Assembly: GCF_009931435.1 (NCBI RefSeq)
Contig: NZ_CP043414.1
DNA from: Escherichia coli
GTDB lineage: Bacteria; Pseudomonadota; Gammaproteobacteria; Enterobacterales; Enterobacteriaceae
Strand: one strand, 5' to 3'
Length of the DNA: 64,000 nucleotides
Part shown: piece after piece, positions 3,086 through 9,317 of the stretch
Layout of the letters: each line of letters starts with the position of its first letter
Position numbering within the stretch: position 1 is the first letter of the stretch
Notes under the pieces: generated by a model
What the model was told of the DNA's origin: nothing
Database searches by the model: none
What the model saw: only the letters and a program-made list of their open reading frames with translations
Program-made: the position numbers and the translations under genes

Positions 3086-4348
3086 ATGCCACATTCACTG
3101 TTCAGCACCGATACCGACCTCACCGCCGAAAATCTGCTGCGTTTGCCCGCAGAATTTGGCTGCCCGGTGTGGGTCTACGATGCGCAAATTATTCGTCGGC
3201 AGATTGCAGCGCTGAAACAGTTTGATGTGGTGCGCTTTGCACAGAAAGCCTGTTCCAATATTCATATTTTGCGCTTAATGCGTGAGCAGGGCGTAAAAGT
3301 GGATTCCGTCTCGTTAGGCGAAATAGAGCGTGCACTGGTGGCGGGTTACAATCCGCAAACGCACCCCGATGATATTGTTTTTACGGCAGATGTTATCGAT
3401 CAGGCGACGCTTGAACGCGTCAGTGAATTGCAAATTCCGGTGAATGCGGGTTCTGTTGATATGCTCGACCAACTGGGTCAGGTTTCGCCAGGGCATCGGG
3501 TATGGCTGCGTGTTAATCCGGGGTTTGGTCACGGGCATAGCCAAAAAACCAATACCGGTGGCGAAAACAGCAAGCACGGTATCTGGTACACCGATCTGCC
3601 CGCCGCACTGGACGTGATACAACGTCATCATTTGCAGCTGGTCGGCATTCACATGCACATTGGTTCTGGCGTTGATTATGCCCATCTGGAACAGGTATGT
3701 GGTGCTATGGTGCGTCAGGTCCTCGAATTCGGTCAGGATTTACAGGCTATTTCTGCGGGCGGTGGGCTTTCTATTCCTTATCAACAGGGTGAAGAGGCGG
3801 TTGATACCGAACATTATTATGGTCTGTGGAATGCCGCGCGTGAGCAAATCGCCCGCCATTTGGGCCATCCTGTGAAACTGGAAATTGAACCGGGTCGCTT
3901 TCTGGTAGCGCAGGCTGGCGTATTAATTACTCAAGTGCGGAGCGTCAAACAAATGGGTAGCCGCCACTTTGTGCTGGTTGATGCCGGGTTCAACGATCTG
4001 ATGCGCCCGGCAATGTACGGTAGTTACCACCATATCAGTGCCCTGGCATCTGATGGTCGTTCTCTGGAACACGCACCAACGGTGGAAACCGTCGTCGCCG
4101 GACCGTTATGTGAATCGGGCGATGTCTTTACCCAGCAGGAAGGGGGAAATGTCGAAACCCGCGCCTTGCCGGAAGTGAAGGCAGGTGATTATCTGGTACT
4201 GCATGATACAGGGGCATATGGCGCATCAATGTCATCCAACTACAATAGCCGTCCGCTGTTACCAGAAGTTCTGTTTGATAATGGTCAGGCGCGGTTGATT
4301 CGCCGACGCCAGACCATTGAAGAATTACTGGCGCTGGAATTGCTTTAA
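3086..4348 (+). CDS. lysA: Diaminopimelate decarboxylase
   Basis: 420 aa, PLP-dependent Orn/DAP decarboxylase fold; recognised sequence. Confidence 0.95.
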   Translation: MPHSLFSTDTDLTAENLLRLPAEFGCPVWVYDAQIIRRQIAALKQFDVVRFAQKACSNIHILRLMREQGVKVDSVSLGEIERALVAGYNPQTHPDDIVFTADVIDQATLERVSELQIPVNAGSVDMLDQLGQVSPGHRVWLRVNPGFGHGHSQKTNTGGENSKHGIWYTDLPAALDVIQRHHLQLVGIHMHIGSGVDYAHLEQVCGAMVRQVLEFGQDLQAISAGGGLSIPYQQGEEAVDTEHYYGLWNAAREQIARHLGHPVKLEIEPGRFLVAQAGVLITQVRSVKQMGSRHFVLVDAGFNDLMRPAMYGSYHHISALASDGRSLEHAPTVETVVAGPLCESGDVFTQQEGGNVETRALPEVKAGDYLVLHDTGAYGASMSSNYNSRPLLPEVLFDNGQARLIRRRQTIEELLALELL

Positions 4349-4354
4349 CTGCGG

Positions 4355-5386
4355 TTAGTCGCTGGTTGCATGATGACTTGCCTCCAGCGACGGAGTTGAC
4401 ACTGAATGGCGACGTACCAGCGTCGGACTAAAGACATTAGTGATTTCCGGGAGAGGGCGATTATCAGCCAGCGCCAAAGCCAGTTCGGCAGCCTGGGTCG
4501 CCATCGTCACGATTGGGTAACGCACGGTGGTCAGACGCGGGCGCACATAGCGTGACACCAGCACATCATCAAAGCCAATTAACGAAATCTCACCCGGTAC
4601 TTCAATACCATTATCATTGAGAACGCCCATCGCACCCGCCGCCATTGAATCGTTATAACAGGCTACCGCAGTGAAATTCCTTCCGCGTCCCAAAAGCTCG
4701 GTCATTGCCTGTTCGCCGCCGCTTTCGTCTGGTTCGCCAAATGTCACTAGCCGGTCATTGGCCGGAATACCACTTTCAGCAAGGGCATCGTAATACCCTT
4801 GCAGACGATCTTCGGCGTCAGAAATAGAGTGGTTAGAGCACAGATAACCAATGCGGGTATGACCTTGCTGAATTAAATGACGCGTTGCCAGCCAGGCACC
4901 GTAACGATCGTCCAGAGCAATACAACGGTTTTCAAAGCCAGGCAGGATACGGTTGATCAGCACCATACCGGGCATTTGTTTCATTAATGAGGCTAAATCG
5001 GCATCCGGGATCATTTTGGCATGGACAACCAGCGCAGCACAGCGGTGGCGGATCAGTTGCTCAATGGCCTGACGCTCTTTTTGTTCGTTGTGGTAACCGT
5101 TGCCAATCAATAAAAAATTACCAGTGTGATAAGCCACCTGCTCGACCGCTTTCACCATTGCACCGAAAAACGGATCGGAAACATCACCAACGACCAGACC
5201 GACCGTTTCAGTGGTCTGTTGCGCCAGCGCACGGGCGTTGGCGTTCGGGTGATAACTAAGAGACTCCATTGCACTATGCACAGCCAGCCGGGAGGCTTCG
5301 CTGGCTTTGGGTGAATTATTAATGACGCGGGAAACGGTGGCGACTGAAACGCCTGCCAGTCGGGCTACATCCTTTATGGTCGCCAT
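4355..5386 (-). CDS. galR: Galactose operon repressor, LacI family
   Basis: 343 aa, N-terminal HTH MATIKDVARLAGVSVATVSRV; convergent with lysA. Confidence 0.9.
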   Translation of the reverse strand: MATIKDVARLAGVSVATVSRVINNSPKASEASRLAVHSAMESLSYHPNANARALAQQTTETVGLVVGDVSDPFFGAMVKAVEQVAYHTGNFLLIGNGYHNEQKERQAIEQLIRHRCAALVVHAKMIPDADLASLMKQMPGMVLINRILPGFENRCIALDDRYGAWLATRHLIQQGHTRIGYLCSNHSISDAEDRLQGYYDALAESGIPANDRLVTFGEPDESGGEQAMTELLGRGRNFTAVACYNDSMAAGAMGVLNDNGIEVPGEISLIGFDDVLVSRYVRPRLTTVRYPIVTMATQAAELALALADNRPLPEITNVFSPTLVRRHSVSTPSLEASHHATSD

Positions 5387-5400
5387 GAAAATACCTTAGT

Positions 5401-5416
5401 GGGTAAACGCTTACAT
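5401..5416. promoter_or_regulatory. Putative GalR/GalS-type operator upstream of galR
   Basis: gggtaaacgcttacat matches 14 of 16 positions of the gal operator consensus GTGKAANCGNTTMCAC as I recall it; about 15 bp upstream of the galR start. Confidence 0.35.
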
Positions 5417-5599
5417 TCTGTCAGTGTTACGGAAAATACCTGTTGGTTCAAGTGGCGACGTGTTTTCATCGTGGGAATGTGAGCCAAACGCAAATAAATA
5501 AGACAAAAAAAGAGATTGCAAACCTTTGGTTACACTTTGCGAAACGCTGTTGCGATTGACCGCTGGTTGCGTTTGGCTTCAGGTTGCTAAAGTGGTGGT

Positions 5600-5681
5600 C
5601 CCAGAGGTATTGATAGGTGAAGTCAACTTCGGGTTGAGCACATGAATTACACCAGCCTGCGCAGATGCGCAGGTTTTTTTT
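5600..5681 (+). ncRNA. omrB: OmrB small RNA (OmpR-regulated, Hfq-dependent)
   Basis: Conserved 5' end cccagaggtattgat, 3' terminator hairpin cctgcgcagatgcgcagg plus T-run; tandem with omrA. Confidence 0.85.
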
Positions 5682-5796
5682 TGCCGGTCATCAATCTGTA
5701 ACAGTAACCGACAATTTACACACCTCGTTGCATTTCCCTTCATTCCTTTGCGTTTTATCGCTGGCGAAGAGTCGTCGTGCAGACCACAATCAAGAT

Positions 5797-5884
5797 CCCA
5801 GAGGTATTGATTGGTGAGATTATTCGGTACGCTCTTCGTACCCTGTCTCTTGCACCAACCTGCGCGGATGCGCAGGTTTTTTTT
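5797..5884 (+). ncRNA. omrA: OmrA small RNA
   Basis: Same conserved 5' end, terminator cctgcgcggatgcgcagg plus T8; 88 bp upstream of aas. Confidence 0.85.
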
Positions 5885-5950
5885 CGCACCTAATTTACTG
5901 TCGCTCGCGTTCTTTATCTCGTGTAATCTCCCTCCATTCGCTTTTACTGA

Positions 5951-9317
<3,367 letters not shown>

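Follow-up and report, generated by a model that had tools for sequence, protein, structure and literature searches.

The GalR/GalS operator OE(galR) in an Escherichia coli genome: a conserved register with the galR promoter and probable steric auto- and cross-regulation

The 16-bp imperfect dyad at positions 5401 to 5416 of the window (the whole 64,000-nucleotide stretch of Escherichia coli DNA analyzed here) is almost certainly a bona fide operator for the repressor GalR and its paralogue GalS. The best explanation for its role, and one we consider very probable, is that GalR and GalS sterically block RNA polymerase at this site and are released by galactose, resulting in both autoregulation and cross-regulation of galR. 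The dyad is a known element, OE(galR) from the gal regulon of E. coli, and, read in the sense of galR, is base-for-base identical to the site listed as "OE (galR)" at NC_000913.3 2976569-2976584 by Qian et al. 2016 (PMC5110547, Table 1); earlier references for this operator are Weickert and Adhya 1993 and Qian et al. 2012. The initial annotation, which had described a possible GalR operator just 5' of galR, was thus borne out by identity with the K-12 operator, by a ChIP-chip peak at that operator and by first rank in a weight matrix scan. Relative to galR, which is on the minus strand, the operator is indeed upstream; its distance from the start codon had been given as ~15 bp, and the exact gap is 14 nt (from 5401 to the A of the ATG at 5386). 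The gap between OE (galR) and galR (2976599-2977630) in K-12 is the same. The operator and its neighbors are as follows.

5401-5416, reading GGGTAAACGCTTACAT on the plus strand and ATGTAAGCGTTTACCC in galR sense: GalR/GalS operator OE(galR), 16-bp imperfect dyad (from sequence, matrix, K-12 identity and conservation)
4355-5386, minus strand: galR coding sequence, 343 amino acids, LacI family, with the operator in its promoter (from the open reading frame and RefSeq annotation on 100%-identical E. coli DNA)
5600-5681, plus strand: OmrB small RNA (Rfam RF00079, 86 bits), divergent from galR as in K-12
5797-5884, plus strand: OmrA small RNA (Rfam RF00079, 97 bits), divergent from galR as in K-12

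The gene order lysA-galR-omrB-omrA-aas is that of the E. coli chromosome segment that carries positions 5401 to 5416. E. coli strain RMDEC465 is 100% identical to the 1.7-kb stretch around galR, where RefSeq labels lysA, galR and aas, and the stretch was found in 5,423 of 5,426 complete E. coli genomes. Identity to window positions 4300 to 6000 reached at least 99% in only three of those 5,423 genomes, with nearly all of the rest in the 95-99% band; the source of the window appears to be an uncommon, somewhat divergent E. coli lineage. The GalR protein encoded in the window differs from K-12 GalR at two of 343 residues (A208P and D262E), and the DNA-binding domains (residues 1-60) are the same, without a single difference. 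Because these domains are identical, binding data obtained with K-12 GalR should carry over to the window strain. A terminator-like hairpin at 5654-5675 is part of OmrB.

The consensus for GalR sites, GTGNAANCGNTTNCAC, is a dyad (GTGNAANC.GNTTNCAC) with a central CG. The initial annotation had called the site close to this consensus, which is accurate insofar as 10 of the 12 specified positions match (the mismatches are at positions 2 and 16, and the CG is present), but a search allowing up to two mismatches returned three matches in the window against 3.39 expected, so that the resemblance, being at chance level, is not significant on its own. Two mismatches are also found in the proven operators galE OI, mglB, galS OE and galS OI. 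Positions 3, 5, 9 and 15 were described as genetically critical by Adhya and Miller 1979, as cited in PMC5110547, and all four are intact on the plus strand of the window operator (G3, A5, G9 and A15). The symmetry mate in the other half-site (position 2 on the plus strand, which is position 15 in gene sense) is G/C and not T/A, making that half-site sub-consensus.

Given the chance-level count, the consensus search was dropped as a test in favor of symmetrized weight matrices, which were built from GalR sites other than those of galR, with both galR sites left out. One matrix was made from seven classical operators, the sequences of which were verified in K-12 DNA, and the other from 19 sites, comprising these seven and twelve ChIP-chip sites (PMC5110547, Table 3). 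In the matrix scan that the initial annotation had suggested, the operator, rather than falling below random intergenic sequence, scored 17.1 bits with the 7-site matrix and 18.5 bits with the 19-site matrix (training sites, 12.9-21.6 bits) and ranked first among the 63,985 positions in the window, the runner-up reaching 12.0-12.35 bits. Sites equally strong are expected 0.02-0.04 times per 64 kb, or about 1.3-3 times per 4.6 Mb. That the site is a chance palindrome, or alternatively an element that acts in the 5' leader of the galR mRNA instead of as protein-binding DNA, is scarcely credible. The consensus count and the one to three equally strong sites expected by chance in an E. coli genome would be compatible with a palindrome of no significance; against it stand the rank and score in the matrix scan, conservation across genera relative to control genes, and published ChIP-chip occupancy.

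To define the conservation of the site, one genome per species was scanned for codons of the GalR N-terminus MATIKDVARLAGV, a pattern that is blind to upstream DNA, yielding 120 loci that were split by identity to the window GalR into orthologues (at least 57%) and controls, which are unrelated LacI-family genes (~30%). The orthologues come from about 25 genera of Enterobacterales, including Escherichia, Salmonella, Citrobacter, Enterobacter, Klebsiella, Kluyvera, Pantoea, Erwinia, Serratia, Hafnia, Edwardsiella, Rosenbergiella and others, and the controls from Vibrio, beta-proteobacteria and Firmicutes. When 150 nt upstream of each gene were scanned, a matrix match scoring 16.4 bits or more was present in 53 of 57 orthologues, in every case 11-24 nt 5' of the ATG. 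The median best score was 18.8 bits in orthologues versus 1.4 bits in controls, and only three of 58 LacI-family controls reached 12 bits or more. Between the window and Salmonella, the promoter spacer and upstream DNA have changed, yet the 16-mer shows no substitution. Among the 53 operators, positions 2-6, 8-9, 11-12 and 14, which are contact positions, are essentially invariant, and variation is found at the "N" positions of the consensus (1, 7, 10 and 13). Variation at "N" positions with fixed contacts is the pattern that would be expected of a protein-binding dyad, and it speaks against both chance and a role confined to the mRNA leader.

Four orthologues lack an operator near the ATG: two from Dickeya (L057 and L085), one from Tatumella ptyseos (L058) and one from a Tolumonas metagenome-assembled genome (MAG; L101). 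The T. ptyseos locus has the promoter block TTTTCCGTAACACT without the operator, and the Tolumonas MAG has instead a perfect-looking palindrome, ATGTAATCGATTACAT, 210 nt upstream. Three unrelated LacI-family genes with the MATIKDVARLAGV N-terminus, from Neobacillus (L066), a Clostridia MAG (L114) and a Selenomonadales MAG (L035), are preceded by CG-centered palindromes of 16-18 bits located 14-17 nt 5' of the ATG, which points to the same self-operator layout in distant members of the LacI family.

Published work on K-12 provides direct evidence of occupancy. A GalR ChIP-chip peak with a score of 21.2 is centered at 2976577 and assigned to "omrB/galR", with the inferred site GGGTAAACGCTTACA, and OE (galR) is among the operators that make long-range contacts detected by 3C (PMC5110547). 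The information-theory scan in the same study gave OE (galR) 16.0 bits, the fourth strongest site in the genome, with a model trained on that site among others (PMC5110547). Parisutham et al. 2022 studied a site from the galR promoter, called BS4, with a native position of +8.5, and found that GalR and GalS both act through it (PMC9189660). Every site tested in that study was bound more strongly by GalR than by GalS, BS4 was the second weakest of the four, and all four conformed to a model of pure steric hindrance when positioned immediately 3' of a synthetic promoter (PMC9189660). We equate BS4 with the window operator on the basis of its description as the galR-promoter site at +8.5, its exact sequence not being found in the supplements of PMC9189660. 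Considering the identical K-12 sequence (ChIP-chip score of 21.2, 3C and titration) together with the identical DNA-binding domain, binding of GalR and GalS to the operator in the window should likewise carry over.

The position of the operator relative to the putative galR promoter is also conserved, and the promoter elements assigned in the window are listed here.

5446-5451, minus strand: putative -35 element TTGAAC, separated from the -10 element by a 17-nt spacer; CTTGAA shows no change between the window and Salmonella and is conserved across genera
5423-5428, minus strand: putative -10 element AACACT, within the conserved block TTTTCCG(T/C)AACACT
5416, minus strand: predicted first nucleotide of the galR transcript, the A of ATGTAAGC, located 7 nt beyond the T of AACACT and matching the +8.5 position (PMC9189660)
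5393-5397, minus strand: Shine-Dalgarno-like AAGGT, between the operator and the galR ATG and 6 nt from the latter; AGGT is retained from the window as far as Salmonella

Orthologous regions lined up by their operators have in common cTTGAA, followed by a spacer and TTTTCCG(T/C)AACACT. The operator starts 5-8 nt past the AACACT block in 48 of the 53 orthologues; in the window, the distance is 6 nt. Since it usually follows this conserved -10-like element by 5-8 nt, the operator would cover the transcription start, and with the start predicted at 5416, it would occupy +1 to +16, with its center at +8.5. This assignment of the promoter draws on conservation and the literature; a generic sigma-70 scan did not call the putative galR promoter, a weak one that matches the consensus at only 7 of 12 positions. 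The sole promoter-like match from that scan, within the galR coding sequence at 5343-5315, was disregarded. The block TTTTCCG(T/C)AACACT (5423-5442, minus strand) is conserved in ~25 genera, beyond what a weak -10 element alone would need, and could include a further protein-binding or promoter-specificity element.

With the operator at +1 to +16, its sequence would also form the very 5' end of the galR mRNA, as a leader element would require. No stable leader RNA structure was detected, however, either in the window (z = +0.59) or among the 53 orthologues (mean z = +0.46, none below -2). On these scores, an RNA-structure account of the conserved leader is rejected, and the reading of the site as a chance palindrome or leader element is effectively refuted.

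Our data, together with the published binding data, are consistent with the following mechanism. In the absence of D-galactose, the 16-bp dyad would be occupied by a dimer of either paralogue, GalR or GalS. As the dyad (~+1 to +16) is within the footprint of RNA polymerase, the bound dimer would hinder open-complex formation or promoter escape, and the occupied operator would therefore lower transcription of galR, amounting to negative autoregulation by GalR and cross-regulation by GalS. D-galactose would cause the repressor to let go. Because the downstream half-site is sub-consensus (TTACCC instead of TTACAC), the feedback is expected to be weak or tuned. Our analysis shows the identity with the K-12 operator, the matrix score, the conservation and the position relative to conserved promoter elements; in vivo occupancy by GalR, the +8.5 position and binding by both paralogues come from the literature, and we infer steric repression at the native promoter and the transcription start in the window strain. 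That the main local effect of the operator is steric negative regulation of galR is probable, though we hold this part with less confidence than the identity of the site.

The strength and even the sign of the in vivo effect on galR are disputed in the literature, and published outcomes are not uniform. In work by Weickert and Adhya in 1993, a galR-lacZ fusion reportedly seemed essentially unregulated. GalR has been treated as constitutively expressed (PMC2516365), galR has been placed among the operons controlled by GalR (PMC4073488), and it has been called autoregulated (in PMC3119520, which cites Semsey 2007 for the statement). A further study lists galR as activated by GalR and repressed by GalS (PMC9189660). 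Across the LacI family, 72% of regulators are predicted to be autoregulated (PMC4052901). The initial annotation had taken the operator to imply autoregulation or cross-regulation by GalS, an idea that gains support from the finding that GalR and GalS act via the galR-promoter site (PMC9189660).

Some of these reports would fit a different role, in which GalR does bind the site, but mainly to anchor chromosome architecture: dimers at distant operators would oligomerize into "mega-loops", and local control of galR transcription would be slight or absent. Long-range 3C contacts have been seen for OE(galR) (PMC5110547), galR has been described as constitutive (PMC2516365), and a local loop between OE and an internal operator is unlikely because the internal site, OI(galR), is weak and not conserved. 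A pure anchor, however, would need no fixed register, and the register of 5-8 nt past the -10-like element is maintained in 48 of 53 orthologues from ~25 genera; moreover, any protein bound at a site overlapping the transcription start must interfere with RNA polymerase. We therefore regard a predominantly architectural role as very unlikely. Anchoring and local control are compatible, and anchoring is possible in addition to steric repression.

The internal site has the following counterpart in the window.

5140-5155, GTGAAAGCGGTCGAGC in gene sense: corresponds to the published "OI (galR)"; within the coding sequence of galR and 261 bp center to center from OE (K-12 coordinates in PMC5110547)

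This counterpart scored 1.8 bits in the window versus 5.4 bits in K-12; a synonymous substitution relative to K-12 (GAA to GAG) makes the window site weaker still. Its median score in 57 orthologues was -4.8 bits, and none reached 12 bits. The segment encodes the conserved peptide VKAVEQ, synonymous positions of which drift freely in orthologues, and its similarity to an operator is explained by this coding sequence. As judged from sequence comparison, OI(galR) is doubtful as a functional operator. No intragenic site of at least 12 bits was present in the first 420 nt of galR in 55 orthologues, and a two-operator loop between OE and OI, of the repressosome type formed at galETKM, is unsupported at galR since the internal partner is weak and unconserved. 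A weak matrix match elsewhere in galR, TGGTAACCGTTGCCAA at 5091-5106 (gene offset 280; 10.55 bits), reaches at least 10 bits in eleven orthologues and is absent from the published ChIP-chip table (PMC5110547); it is probably explained by coding constraint on the LIGNGYH segment of GalR.

The operator was also compared with known systems. The window and the K-12 OE (galR) locus share the 16-bp sequence, the 14-nt gap to the ATG, the divergent omrB neighbor and the GalR DNA-binding domain; the operator itself shows no difference, while the promoter spacer and upstream DNA in the window differ at a few bases. The galETKM operators OE (-60.5) and OI (+53.5) are bound by the same repressor and have the same GTGNAANCGNTTNCAC dyad with a central CG as the galR site, and their matrix scores are comparable (17-21 bits for gal operon sites, 17-18.5 bits for the galR site). 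At galETKM, however, repression involves a GalR-HU DNA loop that joins two strong operators, one on each side of the promoters (PMC5110547), whereas galR has one strong operator on its transcription start. With a single strong operator and a weak, unconserved internal partner, simple steric hindrance is likelier than looping at galR. The galS promoter, where the operators serve autoregulation of the isorepressor GalS, resembles that of galR in belonging to a gal-regulon repressor gene with GalR/GalS operators at its own promoter, but the external galS operator is upstream, at -61.5 (PMC9189660), unlike the galR site. The downstream operators of purR and the O3 roadblock of lacI are, as here, cases of a LacI-family repressor acting on a CG-centered palindrome at or downstream of its own promoter. 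Autoregulation of LacI, however, works by a roadblock to transcription at the gene's far end, the galR site overlaps the start, and the specificities of the proteins differ.

While comparing Table 1 of PMC5110547 with the K-12 loci (L003 and L004), we noted that some operator labels disagree with gene context: the coordinate given for "OE (galS)", 2240618, falls at the galS 3' end and upstream of mglB, and that given for "O (mglB)", 2239532, falls within mglB coding sequence. In K-12, the actual upstream site of galS is ATGGAAACGGTTACAG, at 2241764-2241779.

A further explanation for the conflicting reports is that the operator discriminates between the paralogues, such that GalS represses galR and GalR activates its own promoter or fails to repress it, the result being mainly cross-regulation of galR by GalS. 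The downstream half-site offers a possible basis, since it reads TTACCC rather than TTACAC (gene-sense positions 15-16, corresponding to 5402 and 5401), and at position 15, 50 of 53 orthologous operators from ~25 genera have C and none has A, while A is present at this position in 15 of 19 other K-12 GalR sites after symmetrizing. Sites just 3' of a promoter nevertheless acted as steric repressors for both proteins, and GalR bound each of them more strongly (PMC9189660). There is also no obvious mechanism for activation from a site centered at +8.5, Yersinia pestis has a galR regulatory region like that of E. coli despite having no galS (PMC3119520), and control of galR by GalR is described in other papers (PMC4073488; PMC3119520). 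We consider mainly paralogue-specific control quite unlikely, and steric repression by both GalR and GalS remains the explanation that we prefer.

OE(galR) matters little as a discovery: it is textbook-level knowledge of the gal regulon, in print since 1993 and corroborated by both ChIP-chip and 3C, and a genuine operator was recognized here by a reader of the sequence alone. What our analysis adds is a broader phylogenetic footprint (53 of 57 orthologues), the fixed spacing between operator and promoter, a conserved sub-consensus half-site and doubt about OI(galR). What matters biologically is the strength and the direction of galR regulation by GalR and GalS via OE, a point on which published results disagree. 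The almost invariant C at position 15 may be a detail that was not previously known, and retention of a sub-consensus half-site while flanking sequences were randomized suggests selection for a weak or discriminating operator, which would fit the comparatively weak binding reported for BS4 (PMC9189660). That the operator is deliberately sub-optimal, with its departure from consensus under selection, and is a paralogue-discriminating control element as opposed to a plain autorepression operator, is a speculative proposal that we think unlikely to be correct. If true, such an operator could establish a weak set-point for feedback or allow GalR and GalS to act differently on one site, and the latter would explain the report that galR is activated by GalR and repressed by GalS.
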